Of a stretch of DNA of 64,000 nt, positions 2,019 through 37,998 are shown one piece after another. The position numbers were made by a program, and so were the translations under genes. The notes below the pieces were generated by a model. The model was not told the DNA's origin. It saw only the letters and a program-made list of their open reading frames with translations, and made no database searches. This stretch comes from an uncultured Candidatus Saccharibacteria bacterium (GTDB lineage: Bacteria > Patescibacteriota > Minisyncoccia > Phycocordibacterales > CAYSCM01): NCBI GenBank assembly GCA_964429815.1, contig CAYSCM010000001.1, forward strand, positions 192,001 to 256,000, read 5' to 3'. Position 1 is the first letter of the stretch, and each line of letters begins with the position of its first letter.

Positions 2019-3851
2019 CTATTTATTCGCCTCGGCCTCGAGCTCCTGGCGGGCCTTTTTAATAGCGAGAATTTGGCTCGGATCGGAGGTGATGATTTGA
2101 TCTTCGGTATAAGAGGCGATGATTTTGATGGCGACGTGTTTGAGGCCGGCAAAGAATATCCCCTCTCCCACGTCCGATTCCAGGAGCAGGTACTTTTCCT
2201 CGTCGGTGAGGTTAAACGTTTTCTGCACGTTGTCGATGGAGGTTGGCGATTGCTTCAGCAGCAGCTGAATGGAGGAGTTGGTTATCATAGGGAGCCCGTA
2301 GGGAGAGTTCAAGAAATCAGAAACGTCTTGCGTGATGGTGGCAAGACCCAGGAAGTATTTGCGCCCGCGTTTGGCGACCGAAAAGAGGAAACTCGCCGTA
2401 TCCTCGCTCTGCATCATCCAGTGCGCTTCATCGACGATAAAGAGGCGTTTCTTGAGCTCCTTGCGCACTGCGGTCCAGATGAAGTGCGTGACGATGTACA
2501 TGGCGACGGGCTTGAGCTCATCCTCCATGTCGCGCACGGAGAATACGACAAAATTTTTGTTGATATCGACATTGGTCGGGCGATTGATGAAACCTGCCCA
2601 CGTACCCTTGGTGTACTTGGAGAGGCGCTGCACGAGCGACTCGGAGCCTTCCATTCCGGCGAGCACGAGCTCGAAGTCGGAGAGGAGCGGCGGCTCGATG
2701 CTGGTGAAGTCGCTCTCCCCCGTTATGTCCTTGAGCGCATAGGTTTCCGTGATAGCCCGGTCGATGATGGAGTCTTCCTCCGGCGTTAGGCCGCCGAGCA
2801 TGATGCGGAACAGGCCCACGAGATTCACGATGTTGCTTCGAAGCACGTCGCCGGGAGCTTCGTCTTCCCGCGGGGTCGGCAGGTCGAAGGGGTTGATGTG
2901 GTGCTCGGAGGTGAGGGATATGTTGAAGTAGCGCCCACCGACGGCGTCCGCCATGTACTCGTACTCACGCTCAGGGTCGATGACAATGACCTCGGTGCCG
3001 AACATAAGGGAGCGCAAAATTTCGAGCTTTACCGCGTAGGATTTGCCGGCGCCGGATTTTGCGAACGTCACCGAGTTGTAGTTTTCGAGGCTAAAGCGAT
3101 CAAAGAGGATGAGGGAGCTGTTGTGGCGGTTGATGCCGTAGAGAATTCCCTTGTCGGAAGTGAGATCGAAGGAGACAAAGGGAAAGAGCGAGGAGAGCGG
3201 CGAGGAGTTGAGCTTCGTGTGCACGGAGAGCTCATCGGAGGCTATGGGAAGTACGGAGCGGAACCCCTGCTCCTGCTGAAAGAGCGCGGGCTTCACGTAG
3301 ATGAGGCGGCTCTCGAGCATGGTCTTTATCTCGCTCTCCACCTTGTCGAGCTCTTCCTGCGAGTTGCCATAGATAGAAATGTAAAGCCCGACATCGAAGA
3401 GTTTCTCTTGCGCCTGCTGGAGCTGGTCGCGGAGCGATTCAAGGTCACGATAGGCGGTGTCGAGCATTGGATCGCGCACGAGCCCGCGCTCCTCTCGGGT
3501 CGTGATCTGACTTTGCACCTCCGCGACCTTTTTTTGGAATTTCCGAAGCACTGTAGCGGTGTCCGCCGGATGCACGAATATGGATACGTCGAAGACCCGA
3601 TCGAGATTTATGATGGGAGCAAACCAGGAATCCGCGAGGTAGCGTGGGTAGGAAATAACAAATAGCGTGCGCACCAGCTTGTCGCCGAGATTCATCTCCC
3701 GCGGGGTGATCTTGAGCGCTGAAGGGGCGATGATGTCGTGGAACTCAAGCGCTCCCGCTTCATAGATTTCCTGCGGCAAAATGGGAGTGACCGGGACTTC
3801 CCTCCTCTTTTTCCCGCCCAAGCCTCCTGTGAGAAAATCAAGTAGAGCCAT
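2019..3851 (-). CDS. VirB4/TrbE/CagE-family type IV secretion ATPase
   Basis: 610 aa. Walker A FAKSGAGKSYAVK and Walker B FIVDEAHWMM. Length and domain order are typical of Gram-positive-type VirB4 (PrgJ/TcpF-like). Confidence 0.8.
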   Translation of the reverse strand: MALLDFLTGGLGGKKRREVPVTPILPQEIYEAGALEFHDIIAPSALKITPREMNLGDKLVRTLFVISYPRYLADSWFAPIINLDRVFDVSIFVHPADTATVLRKFQKKVAEVQSQITTREERGLVRDPMLDTAYRDLESLRDQLQQAQEKLFDVGLYISIYGNSQEELDKVESEIKTMLESRLIYVKPALFQQEQGFRSVLPIASDELSVHTKLNSSPLSSLFPFVSFDLTSDKGILYGINRHNSSLILFDRFSLENYNSVTFAKSGAGKSYAVKLEILRSLMFGTEVIVIDPEREYEYMADAVGGRYFNISLTSEHHINPFDLPTPREDEAPGDVLRSNIVNLVGLFRIMLGGLTPEEDSIIDRAITETYALKDITGESDFTSIEPPLLSDFELVLAGMEGSESLVQRLSKYTKGTWAGFINRPTNVDINKNFVVFSVRDMEDELKPVAMYIVTHFIWTAVRKELKKRLFIVDEAHWMMQSEDTASFLFSVAKRGRKYFLGLATITQDVSDFLNSPYGLPMITNSSIQLLLKQSPTSIDNVQKTFNLTDEEKYLLLESDVGEGIFFAGLKHVAIKIIASYTEDQIITSDPSQILAIKKARQELEAEANK

Positions 3852-30220: not shown

Positions 30221-31132
30221 ATGGCCGACCTTGAGACGCTCAAACGCCAGTTCCTCGAACACCTTGAGATAGAAAAGGGCCGCTCGCTCAAGACGATCGA
30301 AAATTACGATCGCTACCTCTCGCGCTTCCTCGATTTCACCAAAACGAAATCCCCCAAAAGCATCTCGGACGATTCGGTGCGAGAATTCCGGCTTTGGCTC
30401 AACCGCCAGCCAGGCGGCGGCAACGAGACGCTCAAGCGCAAGACGCAAAACTACTACCTCATCGCGCTTCGCGCGTTCCTCAAGTACTTGCGCAAGCGCG
30501 GCATTGAGTCCATCTCCCCGGAGCGCATCGAGCTTGCCAAAGTATCGCAGCGGGAACTCGATCTCATTTCAGGAAGCGAACTCGAGCGTTTGATGAAAGC
30601 ACCGGAAGAGAACACTCTCTCTTCCCTTCGCGATCGCGCCATCCTTGAGCTTCTTTTTTCGACCGGATTGCGGGTGTCAGAGCTCACCTCGCTCAATGCC
30701 GACATCGACTTGGGGAGCGACGAGCTTTCCGTGCGCGGCAAGGGCGAAAAAATACGCGTGGTGTTTCTCTCCCCCTCAGCCAAAGATGCCCTGAAAAAGT
30801 ACCTCGCGAAACGAAAGGACATGGACGAAGCGCTCTTCGTGCAGATGGGAAAAAACGCTAAAGGAGTGAGTGAACTTCGCCTCACCCCGCGCTCCGTCGA
30901 GCGGCTCGTGAAACGCTACGCGATAAAGGCCGGCATCACGCGCAAGGTGACCCCGCATGTCATCCGTCACTCCTTCGCCACCGACCTTCTTCATAATGGC
31001 GCGGACCTTCGAAGTGTGCAGGCGATGCTCGGGCACGCCAACATCGCGACGACGCAGGTCTACACACATGTTACCGACAAGCACCTACGAGACATTCACA
31101 AACATTTTCACGGGCGTAAGCGTCGCTCCTAA
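30221..31132 (+). CDS. xerD: tyrosine site-specific recombinase XerC/XerD family
   Basis: 303 aa. Catalytic region HVIRHSFATDLLHNGADLRSVQAMLGHANIATTQVYTHV with the R..H..R..Y signature and an N-terminal SAM-like domain. Confidence 0.85.
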   Translation: MADLETLKRQFLEHLEIEKGRSLKTIENYDRYLSRFLDFTKTKSPKSISDDSVREFRLWLNRQPGGGNETLKRKTQNYYLIALRAFLKYLRKRGIESISPERIELAKVSQRELDLISGSELERLMKAPEENTLSSLRDRAILELLFSTGLRVSELTSLNADIDLGSDELSVRGKGEKIRVVFLSPSAKDALKKYLAKRKDMDEALFVQMGKNAKGVSELRLTPRSVERLVKRYAIKAGITRKVTPHVIRHSFATDLLHNGADLRSVQAMLGHANIATTQVYTHVTDKHLRDIHKHFHGRKRRS

Positions 31133-33444: not shown

Positions 33445-34977
33445 CTAGGAAACGTGGTAGCGTCCGCGAATTTTTTTTATCTCCTCCCCTTCCGCCTCAG
33501 CCTTTTTCTCTTTACCGCTATCACCTAACTTTTTTAGTTCTGCTTCCGAAAGCTTCACTAATTCTTTCGAACGCGATTCAAGATACTCCGCTGAATTTTT
33601 TTTCGGGTCATCGAGTACTTCTTCCAAAAGTGCGTGCAGAACGAATCCTATTTTTGGCCCGGGCTTTTCATTCGTCACCTCCATTACCTTCACCCCATCG
33701 ATTTTGAGCATGCCCACGGAGATCGGATCGCGCAACGCCTCCTCGACCATCGATTGATATTTACGAAATCGAAAGGGTTGTTCTTTCGGTCGGCCCGTGC
33801 CGATGCGATCACACACGCGCAGATTCATAAGATCCCAAATATTTTCCGGTCCGACATTTCTAATGACGCGACGCACTGCGGAAAGTGTTATTTTTTCTGG
33901 ATCGGAAAAAAACATGTGCCAACGAACAAGCTCCACAACCTTACTGATGGTGTCGCTCGGAAAGCGCAGGTCGGTGAGGATTTTTTTAGTACGCTTCGCG
34001 CCAACTACGTCGTGGCCGTAAAAAGTCCAGTCTTTTTTTTCATCCGACCAGCGTCTCGTCTCCGGTTTAGCTATGTCGTGAAAAAGCCCCGCCAGGCGAA
34101 GATCGAGCGACCACCCTTTATCTGCCGCGTGCTGAAGGGTGCGTAAGTTATGCTCAAAAACGTCGAATTTGTGGGCTTGATTTTGATCTACCCCGATACC
34201 CTGCTCGAGCTCCCCCGCGATGAAGGGCAGGACCTTGAGTTTCTCTGCCAGCCAGAGACCTTGGGCGGGACTATCCGTTTGAAGAATGCGGACAAACTCG
34301 TCTCGAATACGCTCCTTCGATATCTTGGAGAGGCTTCTGGCACTTTGTTCTATGGCTGCCGCCGTCCTCTCTTCTAGAGAGAAGGTAAGGTCGGTCGCTA
34401 TGCGAATAGCGCGAAGCATGCGAAGCGCATCCTCGGCGAAGCGGTCTGCTGGCTCTCCCACTGCACGAACGAGTTTCTTTTTAAGATCCACTTCCCCCTC
34501 AAAATGGTCGACAACCTCTCCGGTATGGGGGTTTAGCGCGAGTGCATTTATGGTGAAATCGCGGCGCTTGAGATCTTCTTCGAGTGTGGCACCAAATTCA
34601 ACCGAATCAGGGCGGCGGGCATCCGAGTACTTCCCCTCCCGTCGGTATGGGGTTACCTCGATAACCTTCAGACGAAGGTCGACGGCCTCCTCGTTCACTA
34701 CCCCCACTGTGCCGAATTCATTGGTGTAGAAGGTATTAGAAAACAACTTCTGTATTTCCTCGGGACGGGCATTCGTCGCCACGTCCCAATCTTTTGGTTC
34801 GCGTCCGAGGAGGAGGTCGCGTACGCAGCCACCGACGATGTAGGCCTCAAAACCGGCCTTTTCTAGGGCTTCAGTGACAGCGAGCACCTCATGTGGGATG
34901 GAAACGTCGTGCGATTTTGGCACCCCTGCATTATACGTGTTTTCCCATAAGCTCACTTTGTCGTAGTATGGCCTCAC
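33445..34977 (-). CDS. cca: CCA-adding tRNA nucleotidyltransferase with HD domain
   Basis: 510 aa. GGCVRDLLLGREPKDWDVAT polymerase-beta NTase motif, RDFTINALA, and HD-domain HDIAKP. Confidence 0.85.
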   Translation of the reverse strand: MRPYYDKVSLWENTYNAGVPKSHDVSIPHEVLAVTEALEKAGFEAYIVGGCVRDLLLGREPKDWDVATNARPEEIQKLFSNTFYTNEFGTVGVVNEEAVDLRLKVIEVTPYRREGKYSDARRPDSVEFGATLEEDLKRRDFTINALALNPHTGEVVDHFEGEVDLKKKLVRAVGEPADRFAEDALRMLRAIRIATDLTFSLEERTAAAIEQSARSLSKISKERIRDEFVRILQTDSPAQGLWLAEKLKVLPFIAGELEQGIGVDQNQAHKFDVFEHNLRTLQHAADKGWSLDLRLAGLFHDIAKPETRRWSDEKKDWTFYGHDVVGAKRTKKILTDLRFPSDTISKVVELVRWHMFFSDPEKITLSAVRRVIRNVGPENIWDLMNLRVCDRIGTGRPKEQPFRFRKYQSMVEEALRDPISVGMLKIDGVKVMEVTNEKPGPKIGFVLHALLEEVLDDPKKNSAEYLESRSKELVKLSEAELKKLGDSGKEKKAEAEGEEIKKIRGRYHVS

Positions 34978-34978
34978 T

Positions 34979-35050
34979 GCCCCCGTGGTGAAATGGATAT
35001 CACAACTGGCTTCGGACCAGTTATTGTGGGTTCGAGTCCTGCCGGGGGCG
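34979..35050 (+). tRNA. tRNA-Arg (anticodon UCG)
   Basis: Manual cloverleaf. Acceptor GCCCCCG/CGGGGGC, D-stem GUGA/UCAC, anticodon stem ACUGG/CCAGU with loop CUUCGGA, T-arm GUGGG-UUCGAGU-CCUGC, discriminator G, no encoded CCA. Confidence 0.85.
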
Positions 35051-35253
35051 CAAACGGCACAAAACGCGGTGCATTTTGCGCGTTTGCGCCAGGCGGAGCG
35101 ATGTTTTGCGAGTACACAAAACCGTGAGCCGAGGCCGCGAAAATTCTGAGCGACGACGAAAAACTATTTTTGTGACCGCCTCGGCGTCGGGTGACAGATT
35201 CTAGATTGAGAAAGCACTGACGCGTGCTATAGTTTCCCCGAAGTATAAAGCAG

Positions 35254-35324
35254 GCGGCCATAGTTTAGTGGTAGGACGGATCCTTGCCAAGGATCAGGTG
35301 GGAGTTCGATTCTCCCTGGCCGCA
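35254..35324 (+). tRNA. tRNA-Gly (anticodon GCC)
   Basis: Manual cloverleaf. Acceptor GCGGCCA/UGGCCGC, anticodon stem GGAUC/GAUCC with loop UUGCCAA, T-arm GGGAG-UUCGAUU-CUCCC, discriminator A. Confidence 0.85.
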
Positions 35325-35348
35325 CAAAAGGACACTTCCCTACGGGGT

Positions 35349-35363
35349 CAGGGAGAATCGAAC
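35349..35363. repeat. inverted copy (CAGGGAGAATCGAAC) of the tRNA-Gly T-arm/3' segment GTTCGATTCTCCCTG (35304..35318)
   Basis: 15-nt perfect reverse complement 30 nt downstream of the tRNA. Confidence 0.6.
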
Positions 35364-35462
35364 GGGAAGGGGTCGGGAAACGGCAGTTTCCCGCGGAGGC
35401 GGAGGAAGGCAGGCAAAGCCTCTGGAAAACCTGGGTTTCCAGAGAGTGAGATAGCGGGGCGT

Positions 35463-35479
35463 CTCCCTGGCCGCACAAT
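35463..35479 (+). repeat. 17-nt direct repeat of the tRNA-Gly(GCC) 3' end (TCTCCCTGGCCGCACAA, identical to 35311..35327)
   Basis: Exact 17-nt match 152 nt downstream of the tRNA. Resembles an att-site duplication left by tRNA-targeting integration. Confidence 0.6.
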
Positions 35480-35610
35480 ACGTAATAAACTTTTCTTACA
35501 TGGCCTGTCTCATAGAAAACTCATAATTTGAGCGTTTCTGTGGATAAATCTGTGAGTATGTGTATTAAGGACAGTCCTATAACCAAAGAATGGCTTTAAA
35601 TCCGTAAAAG

Positions 35611-35656
35611 TTTCACGTGAAAATTAGTTACACGTGAAAATGTTACATGTGAAATG
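35611..35656 (+). repeat. three direct repeats TT(T/A)CACGTGAAAAT at 16-17-bp spacing upstream of the yraN-like gene
   Basis: tttCACGTGaaaat / ttaCACGTGaaaat / ttaCATGTGaaat. Confidence 0.5.
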
Positions 35657-35666
35657 GCAATCCACA

Positions 35667-36047
35667 ATGAACGAACTGGGAAGACTCGGAGAGGACATTG
35701 TTTGCCGCTATCTTTCTGATAGGGGGTATCGGATTGTTTCAAGGAACTATCGTAAAAAGTGGGGTGAAATTGATGTAATTACGACTAAGGGCGGAATCCT
35801 CCATTTCATTGAAGTTAAAGCTGTTTCGCGTGAAAATCTTGACTCAATTTCACAAGAAACAAATTCCTATCGTCCAGAGGACAATGCTCATCCGGAAAAG
35901 CTCAGACGCCTTGCAAGAACCGTTGAAACATATTTACTGGAAAAAGGTGTAGAAGGTGGGCAGTGGAGATTTGATGTTGCGGCTGTCTATATCGATCAGA
36001 GGAAAAAGAAGGCAAAAGTTTCTCTTCTCGAGAACGTTATTTTATAG
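35667..36047 (+). CDS. yraN: YraN-family (UPF0102) putative endonuclease
   Basis: ORF 35634..36047 with likely start MNELGRLGEDIVCRYL. Motif GEIDVI...FIEVKA typical of YraN. Confidence 0.6.
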   Translation: MNELGRLGEDIVCRYLSDRGYRIVSRNYRKKWGEIDVITTKGGILHFIEVKAVSRENLDSISQETNSYRPEDNAHPEKLRRLARTVETYLLEKGVEGGQWRFDVAAVYIDQRKKKAKVSLLENVIL

Positions 36048-36104
36048 GACATTATTAAGGACATGTCTTTTGGCGCTCAACCGTGCTATGATTTTGCCAA
36101 CCAT

Positions 36105-36146
36105 GGGGCGTGGTGTAACGGCTAACATACCCGCGTGGGGAGCGGT
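36105..36146 (+). repeat. partial duplicate (5' half: acceptor, D-arm and anticodon stem) of the downstream tRNA-Pro; pseudo-tRNA fragment
   Basis: 30 nt identical (GGGGCGTGGTGTAACGGCTAACATACCCGC) to 36167..36196, then diverges. No T-arm can form. Confidence 0.6.
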
Positions 36147-36165
36147 TTTCCTTCGAGTTCTTCGT

Positions 36166-36238
36166 CGGGGCGTGGTGTAACGGCTAACATACCCGCTTTG
36201 GGAGCGGGCGACTCCCGGTTCGAATCCGGGCGCCCCGA
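36166..36238 (+). tRNA. tRNA-Pro (anticodon UGG) with C1-G72 base pair and A73 discriminator
   Basis: Manual cloverleaf. Acceptor CGGGGCG/CGCCCCG, anticodon stem CCCGC/GCGGG with loop UUUGGGA, T-arm CCCGG-UUCGAAU-CCGGG. C1:G72 is a known bacterial tRNA-Pro identity feature. Confidence 0.85.
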
Positions 36239-36275
36239 CGAAGCATTTGAATAGACGCGCTTAAGCATGTCTTTT

Positions 36276-37492: not shown

Positions 37493-37563
37493 GCGGGCAT
37501 AGTTTAGTGGCAAAATGGGATCCTTCCAAGATTCGGTCGCCGGTTCGATTCCGGCTGCCCGCA
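37493..37563 (+). tRNA. tRNA-Gly (anticodon UCC)
   Basis: Manual cloverleaf. Acceptor GCGGGCA/UGCCCGC, anticodon stem GGAUC/GAUUC with loop CUUCCAA, T-arm GCCGG-UUCGAUU-CCGGC, discriminator A. Confidence 0.85.
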
Positions 37564-37604
37564 CAAAATGAAATAAGCGCCGCACAAAGGCGGCGCAGCA
37601 CAAT

Positions 37605-37928
37605 TCACATGACTTCCTTGAAGTAACCGAGACCTTTCGGGGGTCGGATGGTACCGGATGAGATGATCGACTCGATCACATCGTCGGTGTCGGTCGGATC
37701 GACGACAACGACAACGACGGCGCAATTGAACATGATGCTTTCCGATTCTTCCCGACTGTCGAGATATTTTTGCATCTCGGCATCGCCAGGGAGCGAGTGC
37801 CATTGCGCAGGCGATTCACGATCATATGCGATCGCGAAGAGGCGTCGACGCCCCTTTTGACGAGCTTCGGAAATTTTTTGCACCATCCCATTCCGGTTGA
37901 GATTCCATTTTCTGACCGATCGAGGCAT
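37605..37928 (-). CDS. hypothetical protein
   Basis: 107 aa. Strong RBS AAGGAGG 6 nt upstream of ATG. A terminator-like hairpin GCGCCGC-ACAAAG-GCGGCGC lies just downstream of the stop at about 37577..37596. Confidence 0.45.
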   Translation of the reverse strand: MPRSVRKWNLNRNGMVQKISEARQKGRRRLFAIAYDRESPAQWHSLPGDAEMQKYLDSREESESIMFNCAVVVVVVDPTDTDDVIESIISSGTIRPPKGLGYFKEVM

Positions 37929-37998
37929 GGCCGCCTCCTTTTTGCTGCTCGCCGCAGCATACTCGACAGACTGGTCGTGTCAACTTGGTCAGAAACAT

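Follow-up and report, generated by a model that had tools for sequence, protein, structure and literature searches.

Sequences that copy, fold or insert themselves beside genes are known in several forms. The att scars of islands and prophages at tRNA and tmRNA genes, and the cis-mobilizable elements (CIMEs) derived from them, show direct repeats of the tRNA 3' end near the T loop, use tmRNA genes as targets, accrete in tandem and occur as filled and empty sites. Repetitive extragenic palindromes (REP) and bacterial interspersed mosaic elements (BIME), miniature inverted-repeat transposable elements (MITEs) such as Correia and RUP, and the Rickettsia palindromic elements are short, non-coding, folded and intergenic, with many copies and a patchy distribution. 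Quasipalindrome template-switch mutations, and the duplication-triplication and inverted-duplication rearrangements (DUP-TRP/INV-DUP) of microhomology-mediated break-induced replication (MMBIR), produce direct, inverted and direct copies of a local segment in succession. Guide-bearing RNAs (the omega RNAs of TnpB/IscB, the bridge RNA of IS110 and the homing CRISPR RNAs of tRNA-targeting CRISPR-associated transposons) join a scaffold to a target-matching segment of about 15-20 nt. The tRNA 3' external transcribed spacer (3'ETS) RNAs such as 3'ETS-leuZ of E. coli, and the t-elements of plant mitochondria, are structures encoded just 3' of a tRNA and are perhaps released by processing. Each of these likenesses is found in, or in the family of, an element that we describe here from a 64,000-nucleotide stretch of an uncultured Candidatus Saccharibacteria bacterium (contig CAYSCM010000001.1, positions 192,001 to 256,000; hereafter the window), whose family has its copy junctions at the T arm, the acceptor stem and terminator hairpins.

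The element occupies positions 35346-35478 of the window, just 3' of the gene for tRNA-Gly(GCC). It is one copy of a family of structured elements in which two arms clamp a conserved core, and that the window's arms belong to such a family element is nearly certain. The members are 100-200 nt long, are found in Patescibacteria on the strand of the tRNA and shortly 3' of tRNA or tmRNA genes, and have a core that is unrelated to tRNA. We could not place this large family with its tRNA-templated arms in any known class that we found, and it is apparently undescribed; a literature search of incomplete coverage returned no description of such tRNA-linked elements. The explanation that we favor, with a probability of roughly 0.55, is that the core propagates and that the arms are copied from the local tRNA gene when the core is installed. 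A first-pass annotation of the window, made from its sequence alone, had read the repeats around this element as scars of integrase-mediated insertion bracketing a yraN-like gene. That reading is partly supported, and the repeats themselves are confirmed. The features of the locus are listed here; L322 is the closest relative found, with 78% amino acid identity in the CCA-adding enzyme.

35206-35233, + strand: promoter-like site TTGAGA-16-TGcTATAGT for tRNA-Gly(GCC); consensus scan 10/12 with an extended -10, homologous block in L322
35254-35324, + strand: tRNA-Gly(GCC), CCA not encoded; ARAGORN, and Rfam at 67.9 bits
35311-35327, + strand: X, the reference copy of the repeated 3' end, made up of the T-stem 3' strand, the acceptor 3' strand, N73 and 3 nt of trailer; repeat comparison
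35326-35344, + strand: tRNA-Gly trailer aaaaggacacttccctac; 16/18 identical to the orthologous trailer at the empty site of L322
35346-35363, + strand: left arm, with the anti-T-loop AATCGAAC as its last part; complementary in reverse to tRNA positions ~49-66, which comprise the T arm and the beginning of the acceptor 3' strand
35358-35461, + strand: type A core; model R1, minimum free energy (MFE) fold and covariation of helices H1 and H2
35462-35478, + strand: right arm, a direct copy of the tRNA-Gly 3' end that pairs with the left arm as P1; repeat comparison and fold
35479-35507, + strand: diverged second trailer copy aatacgtaataaACTTTTCTTACatggc; by-eye comparison with L322, whose orthology restarts afterwards at cctgtctcatagaaaactc

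The sequence X (TCTCCCTGGCCGCACAA) stands at 35311-35327 and again at 35462-35478, identical at 17/17 positions and about 1 nt from where the first-pass annotation had placed the repeat. These are its sole two copies in the window with 2 mismatches allowed, and shuffled windows hold a mean of 0.01 such matches. The inverted copy of the T arm between them is longer than had been noticed. It spans 35346-35363 and is complementary to 35304-35321 at 17/18 positions; it also pairs with the downstream copy (35346-35356 with 35462-35472). An independent Logan assembly of the same genome agrees with the window at 100% identity over 8.4 kb; when strain-level polymorphism of this genome was looked for, only an identical assembly turned up. 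That the repeats are inert products of chance or of assembly draws on their small size and on nothing else; against about 0.01 expected per window, the agreement of the Logan assembly and hundreds of homologous copies, this idea can practically be dismissed.

The core between the arms is a conserved structure. In the window it reads GGGAAGGGGTC, helix H1 (35374-35381 with 35386-35393), CGGAGG...GGAAGG, helix H2 (35420-35428 with 35436-35444, loop ACCTGGG) and GTGAGATAGCGGGGCG. R1, a covariance model of the 5' half of the type A core, matches 35358-35445 with 42.5 bits (E 3.9e-11), and this is its only match in the window. The first-pass annotation had proposed checking the intervening segment for conserved secondary structure, and such structure is present: the MFE fold of the + strand has z = -2.7, and H1 and H2 covary across 97 distinct homologues. 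In the type A alignment 98.6% of helix cells are paired, against at most 73% in controls with the partner slid by one column. Cells with double changes number 253 against 55.7 in shuffles, and 0/500 shuffles reach 253. A second kind of core, type B, forms a three-way junction with compensatory changes in 13/21 pairs and one G.U pair that is invariant in 12/12 sequences. The helices are thus backed by compensatory change beyond controls. A possible pseudoknot between the H2 loop ACCGNGGG and CCCGYGG, examined by eye only, gave no clear covariation.

The consensus of type A is GGGAAGGGGTCGGGAAAc..gTTTCCCGYGGAGGAAGG, a hairpin with loop ACCGNGGG, and GTGAGAT(AGCGAAGCG). That of type B is GGCCGGAGC-hairpin-GCGAGGCGGGGTCGCG-hairpin-TGTGACC. 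Type C is short and consists of a hairpin followed by GTACTG-stem-CTGTAAG-stem', and mosaics of the three types also exist. The strand that matters is the tRNA sense strand, because G.T pairs outnumber A.C pairs in type A helices (18 vs 6) and the + strand folds better (-58.1 kcal/mol vs -45.6 for the - strand). A reading of the opposite strand as a tRNA-like minihelix with a T-loop insertion was rejected; it would turn the U.G of P1 and the invariant G.U of type B into C.A, and the minus fold is weaker. With Rfam 15 at E <= 1, nothing was matched over 35326-35480 or 35052-35205, nor at the elements of five relatives (L014, L028, L035, L054 and L067), where only tRNAs were called. A signal recognition particle RNA or another known RNA in 35326-35480, suspected from the motif GGAAGGCAGG, was rejected on this empty search.

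The arrangement recurs widely. We collected 80 species-level loci of relatives (L001-L080) via the gene of the CCA-adding enzyme, which abuts tRNA-Arg. These relatives are Patescibacteria of Paceibacteria, Adlerbacteria and Kaiserbacteria type, and their CCA-adding enzymes are 60-71% identical. In the window this gene directly adjoins the tRNA gene cluster (33445-35325 for enzyme gene and first tRNAs); most tRNA genes of the cluster have no encoded CCA in this genome, although it is encoded in some relatives. For each tRNA, copies of its last 30 nt were sought in the 330 nt downstream and, as a control, in the 330 nt upstream. Downstream copies are direct in 42/254 tRNAs, inverted in 45/254 and of both kinds in 26/254; the upstream control gives 3/257, 8/257 and 0/257. 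Where both copies occur, the inverted one precedes the direct one in 25/26 tRNAs. All four tRNAs of the cluster are affected among the relatives, and each arm pair matches its own tRNA.

A metagenome scan with the type A pattern extended this to at least 120 loci, with 117 distinct copies among the matches listed. Upstream sequence of at least 150 nt is available for 105 listed matches, and 84 of these 105 lie behind a tRNA or tmRNA gene of the same strand that ends 1-124 nt upstream (median 54). The hosts of those 84 listed copies comprise about 18 tRNA specificities plus tmRNA, and both arms are present and match the tRNA in 65 listed copies. R1 recognizes 104 copies in the metagenome loci. 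In 83 sources, made up of the window, L322, L324 and the 80 relatives, R2 (a model of type B) detects 44 cores and R1 detects 10 at E <= 0.002. Orphan copies are few among the listed type A matches (L229 and L242). One apparent exception, at 350-752 on the - strand of L249, is a type A element that follows a tmRNA gene, and two more, L217 and L271, turn out to be arrays. At three other loci (L210, L248 and L278) group-I-intron-like motifs GGTTCAGAGACTA...GATATAGTCC lie upstream, followed by a tRNA-like 3' end for which ARAGORN makes no call. Judged by these motifs, we read them as probable intron-containing tRNAs that ARAGORN missed. Patescibacteria are known for tRNA genes that contain introns of group I (PMC13011429).

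What the arms copy can be stated closely. In the left arm the 3' third of the tRNA stands as its reverse complement: T loop, T-stem 3' strand, acceptor 3' strand and, in some copies, N73/N74 or the CCA where the gene encodes it. The right arm repeats this stretch directly, starting within the T loop or immediately behind it and in some copies extending into the trailer. Core and arms always meet at the T loop and its complement, and only this 7-8-nt T-loop part is common to all copies; the rest equals the adjacent tRNA. Direct copies range from ~11 nt to ~40 nt with trailers included, so that no target duplication of fixed length is seen. The trailer or terminator is doubled after the right arm in about 12/55 type A copies (~20%), for example in L262, L216, L014 and L271. 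L249 has a single long palindrome that starts with X, passes through the terminator and ends with inverted X.

Two other origins of the arms were rejected. The left arm could have been a copy of the 5' acceptor and T-stem strands, as in a pseudo-tRNA. The tmRNA of L249 decides this point: it starts with GGGGATG (G3.U70), and the arm reads GTGGAGATG, the exact complement of CATCTCC plus N73 and N74. A primer-binding-site-like origin by reverse transcription from mature tRNA does not hold either, because the complement of CCA is present only where the gene encodes CCA, as in the arm of L075, and the core abuts the T loop rather than the 3' end. The arms are very probably target-derived copies. 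Among the cases in which both arms have departed from the tRNA sequence, 63 keep their pairing and 85 have lost it, about the random rate. Since pairing is kept no more often than by chance, the arms are decaying copies and not a stem held by selection.

Comparison with relatives shows how such copies are gained. In L322, the trailer of tRNA-Gly(GCC) is orthologous (aaaaggacatttccctat, for aaaaggacacttccctac in the window) and no element follows it. The segment specific to the window runs from ~35345 to 35507; both arms lie inside it and match the window tRNA, not the L322 tRNA. The fragment of tRNA-Pro described below is also absent from L322. The type A copy and this fragment are therefore lineage-specific events, and the search for an empty site that the first-pass annotation had advised was fruitful for both. 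At tRNA-Gly(TCC) the positions are reversed: L322 has a type A element of the same subfamily, and the window has ~390 nt of unrelated DNA. This segment (37600-37990) lies between the trailer of tRNA-Gly(TCC) and a shared terminator on the HU side, has no counterpart in L322, and contains an open reading frame (ORF) of 107 aa at 37605-37928 on the - strand. The 3' flanks of tRNA genes are variable in general. Elsewhere, a type B copy is present in L028 and missing at the same tRNA in L024, with the ancestral terminator lying beyond the right arm. Near-identical cores occur at tRNA-Gly and tRNA-Pro of L005, and their arms follow their own tRNAs. Arrays of different types are found in L217 and L271, each unit ending in a copy of the tRNA 3' end, and L067 has a tandem pair of type C.

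Filled and empty sites, arrays in which every unit ends in the repeat, the use of tmRNA as a further target and a direct repeat from the T loop to the tRNA end or trailer, which is a classic attB sublocation, would all suit miniature integrative elements. In this alternative the repeats would be attL and attR of a tyrosine or serine integrase crossing over in the T loop, the elements would be integrase-less, attP-only derivatives mobilized in trans in the manner of CIMEs, and the arrays would be successive integrations. Several kb of genes between a tRNA and a distant element with matching arm, in L242 and L041, speak for it as well. However, no integrase lies in or near the elements. Between the repeats of the window there is none, 35328-35461 has no notable ORF, and the only gene between the Gly and Pro repeats is yraN. 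Autonomous long versions with a recombinase between tRNA and distant arm were looked for in L242, L041 and L227, which hold cargo genes and no integrase. Small GIY-YIG-like ORFs of ~80 aa, called from sequence alone, adjoin tRNA genes at 291-536 of L242 and 2875-3123 of L227, where the matching arm is 2-6 kb away and the genes in the interval are unrelated cargo.

The same alternative meets further difficulties in the sequences themselves. An integrase attP matches one attB, whereas one core family here serves ~18 specificities with perfectly matched arms, and neither the inverted copy nor covarying core helices are features of att sites. In the window the 17/17 direct repeat does bound a segment, yet arms and core lie 3' of the orthologous trailer. 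The host's own trailer stands to the left of the element and both arms lie inside the insertion, which misfits a crossover in the T loop. Viral contigs offer no source: the type A pattern has 0 matches in 2.9 million of them, and a 20-mer of the tRNA-Gly 3'-end core (TTCGATTCTCCCTGGCCGCA) has 0 matches there as well; plasmid collections were not searched. A scan of viral sequences with the 14-mer GAGGCGGGGTCGCG gave 120 loci, and of the 100 tested by R2 (L081-L180) all but L086 failed; the failed loci are chance matches. L086, on a 34.7-kb IMG/VR contig, has a real type B element at 2950-3319 in a tandem array with units ending AAATCCCTCCC...; the contig may be a misassigned fragment of Patescibacteria, and the locus ends before any tRNA. 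Taken together, we regard an integrative origin as decidedly unlikely. What stands of the earlier view is that real insertion or duplication events took place, as their absence from L322 shows; that they are integrase att scars does not, no integrase lying between the repeats.

Nor is yraN the cargo of such an insertion. The region between the tRNA-Gly element and tRNA-Pro has the following features.

35539-35646, + strand: yraN upstream region with TGTGGATAA..TATTAAGGACA and three (T)TTCACGTGAAA-like palindromes; kept in L024, L028, L029 and L322
35667-36047, + strand: yraN-like gene (UPF0102); Pfam PF02021, E 7.5e-21, syntenic

The protein matches PF02021 with 74.7 bits (cut-off 23.6). UPF0102/YraN is a predicted nuclease of PD-(D/E)xK type. 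The recurrent order in the relatives is tRNA-Arg, tRNA-Gly(GCC), YraN, tRNA-Pro, a trypsin-like protease, tRNA-Gly(TCC), HU and RNase Y, and YraN lies between tRNA-Gly(GCC) and tRNA-Pro in 61/80 relatives. The segment that L322 lacks is 35345-35507, and the supposed cargo is present in those 61 relatives. Foreign origin of yraN, suspected from its low G+C, was rejected as well, since low G+C is a trait of the family: the gene is richer in A+T than its neighbor in 50/61 relatives, with a median of -5.7 points G+C and -10 in the window. The palindromes TTTCACGTGAAA (CACGTG) and the block TGTGGATAA...TAAAGGACA upstream of the gene are kept in the same four relatives as the upstream region. The tyrosine recombinase that had been cited as a clue is a Xer gene at 30221-31132, outside the repeats; it is the sole tyrosine recombinase of the window and is syntenic in L322 and L324, with the same housekeeping neighbors (ExoIII, S15, NYN). 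The reading of yraN as a bracketed insert therefore fails, because the gene order is kept in relatives, palindromes included, and Xer is a housekeeping gene. yraN is an old resident.

Further motifs surround yraN. TGTGGATAA..GTATGTG and TATTAAGGACA flank it, the latter before and after the gene (35539-35646 and 36046-36063), and the three palindromes lie just before the start codon. The conserved motifs are probably an operator or regulatory set for yraN. Across relatives, yraN is wedged between two tRNA genes that often bear palindromic scars.

A much older core, of type B, lies upstream in the same cluster, after tRNA-Arg and the hairpin that follows it (35047-35090). The cluster features concerned are these.

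34979-35050, + strand: tRNA-Arg(TCG); ARAGORN, and Rfam tRNA at 60 bits
35092-35177, + strand: type B core without arms; model R2
37493-37563: tRNA-Gly(TCC), the fourth tRNA gene of the cluster

The arm-less core reads GGCGGAGC-hairpin-GTGAGCCGAGGCCGCG-hairpin-TTGTGACC, and R2 matches it with 29.1 bits (E 2.7e-5) over model positions 17-95, the core without its closing stem. Arm-less type B cores also follow tRNA-Arg in L322 (5732-5818, - strand), L001, L007 and L074. Their hairpins differ in sequence and remain complementary, that is, they show compensatory changes. This suggests that the arm-less core after tRNA-Arg has been retained over the long term and that the core outlives its arms.

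Persistence of orthologous arm-less cores in genomes 62-78% identical in the flanking enzyme is one of several observations that would suit a functional 3' external-spacer RNA. In such an RNA the left arm would pair with the tRNA 3' third or with the downstream copy and act as a switch or chaperone for maturation, stability or read-through, and the arms would be selected. The structure of the core is under purifying selection, the element is specific for one strand, always that of the tRNA, and no terminator separates tRNA from element in the window or in L028. When tRNA and element are folded together, the prediction pairs the tRNA 3' third with the left arm in a hairpin of 18 bp, and the 5' acceptor strand with the distal copy. 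Yet only ~10-25% of tRNA genes carry an element, its presence differs between close relatives at the same tRNA, and canonical terminators commonly precede it. The doubled trailers and terminators are a signature at the DNA level. The arms show no compensatory upkeep, and old copies have lost them but retain the core, which is the opposite of what an arm switch predicts. We therefore hold this explanation to be unlikely as a whole. A functional core RNA is compatible with the favored explanation of a propagating core with locally copied arms, and it is a function of the arms that is disfavored. The first-pass annotation had mentioned as an alternative a processing or attenuator structure derived from tRNA sequence. 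This comes near to what 35346-35478 is, a conserved structured element with a closing stem derived from tRNA. A riboswitch or T-box leader was rejected; the position of the element is set by the upstream tRNA, and the downstream genes vary and are sometimes convergent.

The strand-specific hairpins also recall folded single-stranded DNA (ssDNA) recombination sites such as integron attC and the attP of CTX phage. GCGNAGC-type mini-hairpins (GCGAAGC, GCGCAGC; in the window AGCGGGGCG at 35450-35461) recur in the cores, as do tandem-GA modules of the form GAGC...GCGA(A/G). The DNA hairpin d(GCGAAGC) is exceptionally stable. The mini-hairpins leave room for a role of the cores as folded DNA, which they may have. 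Within the fixed gene order, single tRNA genes are inverted or swapped, and 65/250 (26%) lie on the opposite strand (for example in L003, L013, L022, L035 and L028); Rfam confirms the flipped tRNAs of L035 and L028. A host Xer-type recombinase could act on such a site with the T-loop duplex GTTCGAT/ATCGAAC, near GTTRRRY/RYYYAAC, as its crossover box. For this idea count the hairpin architecture, the AAC...GTT triplets flanking the core, the recurrent mini-hairpins, the cassette-like flipping and reordering, and Xer as the sole tyrosine recombinase nearby. But the R boxes of attC stand at the base of the outer stem, and here the T-loop box is innermost, beside the core, and a crossover within the T loop would exchange the 3' third of the tRNA. 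The window has no integron integrase or cassette array, and there is no direct evidence for a recombinase. Arm-bearing elements occur at 23% of flipped and 12% of unflipped tRNAs, a weak association (odds ratio 2.1, p = 0.046, not corrected for phylogeny). We give recombination at a folded ssDNA site very little credence.

A duplication without a core is found at the next tRNA gene of the window. Its parts are as follows.

36084-36092, + strand: extended -10-like TGCTATGAT, just 5' of the tRNA-Pro fragment; resembles the tRNA-Gly promoter block, from which a promoter function may be supposed
36105-36145, + strand: non-functional copy of tRNA-Pro positions 2-42, with anticodon GGG, not TGG; repeat comparison, none in L322
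36146-36165, + strand: spacer of ttttcc and TTCGAGTTCTTCGT; the last 14 nt approximate the reverse complement of the tRNA-Pro trailer
36166-36238, + strand: intact tRNA-Pro(TGG); ARAGORN, and Rfam at 62 bits
36238-36251, + strand: discriminator and trailer ACGAAGCATTTGAA, template of the inverted spacer; complementarity to 36152-36165

The 5' part of tRNA-Pro is doubled, 36105-36145 being identical to 36167-36207 at 39/41 positions with both mismatches in the anticodon loop, much as the first-pass annotation had reported. The fragment stands 20 nt upstream of the intact gene. The spacer at 36152-36165 is complementary to the discriminator and trailer (36238-36251) at 11/14 positions and extends the acceptor stem; by our own binomial estimate, the chance of 11/14 at a fixed register is ~4e-5. 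In L322, tRNA-Pro has a promoter-like tgtgctacagt, an 11-nt leader and the intact gene, with no fragment. The window homologue of this promoter-like block, TGCTATGAT, precedes the fragment and not the intact gene. Fragments of this kind recur: in L010, L045, L037 and less clearly in L070, a 5' fragment ending near the anticodon is followed by a spacer reading as the trailer's reverse complement and then by the full tRNA. L001 has only a weaker, shorter 5' fragment. Altogether, 5' fragments lie upstream of 10/419 tRNAs vs 0/419 controls.

The tRNA-Pro fragment bears the signature of a separate, two-step fold-back template-switch duplication that is independent of the tRNA-Gly element. Synthesis would leave the template near position 42, copy the complement of the trailer and re-enter at position 1. 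Re-entry at this position would follow from the complement of the acceptor 3' strand being the acceptor 5' strand. The fragment could thus be a core-less version of the process that installs the elements. The scars of the window had been thought to be nested traces of one history of repeated integration; they are two independent events at two different tRNA genes. The arm-less type B core after tRNA-Arg is much older than the type A copy.

In the explanation that we favor, the core would be the propagating and selected unit, either as folded RNA or as folded sense-strand DNA. The arms would be local tRNA copies that are made when the core is installed and then decay, and they would not be att sites. 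Template switching in the course of replication or repair may be the way in which this happens. A nascent strand would fold back 3' of the tRNA, in many cases at the hairpin of the trailer or terminator, and then copy the 3' third of the tRNA backwards until it reached the T loop. The universal anti-T-loop and T-loop 8-mers would then serve as microhomology connecting any tRNA gene with any existing element, so that the core is copied from another element. Finally, the strand would return to the T loop of the tRNA and copy X and the trailer again. Copy-and-paste template switching of this kind fits because of the junctions at the T loop, the decaying local arms, the doubled trailers, the palindrome of L249, the same cores at different tRNAs of one genome and the core-less duplications. 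As the mechanism of a spread that we only infer, it is put forward tentatively.

Several points weigh against this explanation. The covariation alignment (A4) was fitted to the model, which favors structure. The metagenome pattern held TCGAA beside the core, so that in that set the anti-T-loop junction was in part selected for; the pattern did not build in the link to tRNA genes or the remaining arm sequence. At least three ordered switches are needed, which is much to ask of a process repeated thousands of times, and the regularity of the outcome hints at a dedicated mechanism or enzyme, which was not found here. Passive copying alone does not explain the conserved sequence and helices of the core. 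Their conservation points to an activity of the core, a protein partner (not found here) or a host function of the core RNA. Terminator-like hairpins often lie between tRNA and element and argue against routine co-transcription. In the window the left trailer is not mirrored, so that this copy is not fully accounted for by a plain fold-back at the hairpin of the trailer.

It is possible, though we would not put it higher, that the family represents a new class of genetic element, in which an RNA or ssDNA core copies itself 3' of any tRNA or tmRNA gene, recognizes the T loop and has its stem rebuilt from the target, with no encoded protein. Such a protein-free element may depend on an unrecognized host activity or ribozyme activity, and its old copies may be domesticated as tRNA-linked RNAs. 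Patescibacteria have tiny genomes and single-copy tRNA genes, and ~10-25% of the sampled tRNA genes carry a structured passenger of 100-200 nt. If the elements are mobile, they target an essential and universal class of genes without damage and without an encoded protein, a natural case of target-templated retargeting. Functional RNAs, if that is what the cores are, would make up a large family that lacks annotation and is linked to the expression of tRNAs in a major and poorly understood branch of bacteria. In either case the elements and the core-less fragments leave pseudo-tRNA pieces, palindromes and local rearrangements, which can mislead annotation, island finders that rely on tRNA repeats, and assembly.

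The differences from the known systems named at the outset are as follows. Unlike att scars of islands and prophages, the elements have no integrase, are 100-200 nt long, serve ~18 specificities with matched arms, and have an extra inverted copy and a covarying core; in the window, the insertion contains both arms, which lie 3' of the host trailer. REP and MITE types carry their own terminal inverted repeats and short target duplications of fixed length, whereas the elements have ends copied from tRNA and a single class of target gene. Guide-bearing RNAs differ in that the elements have no associated protein gene and no Rfam match, and in that the target-derived segments pair with each other and are not displayed in a loop. 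The 3'ETS RNAs and t-elements are single-locus structures without tRNA-derived arms, a family-wide core or insertion polymorphism. The core-less duplication at tRNA-Pro fits the quasipalindrome and MMBIR type directly. Events of the MMBIR type are sporadic and bring no conserved foreign core, whereas in the family described here the same cores have been installed repeatedly.

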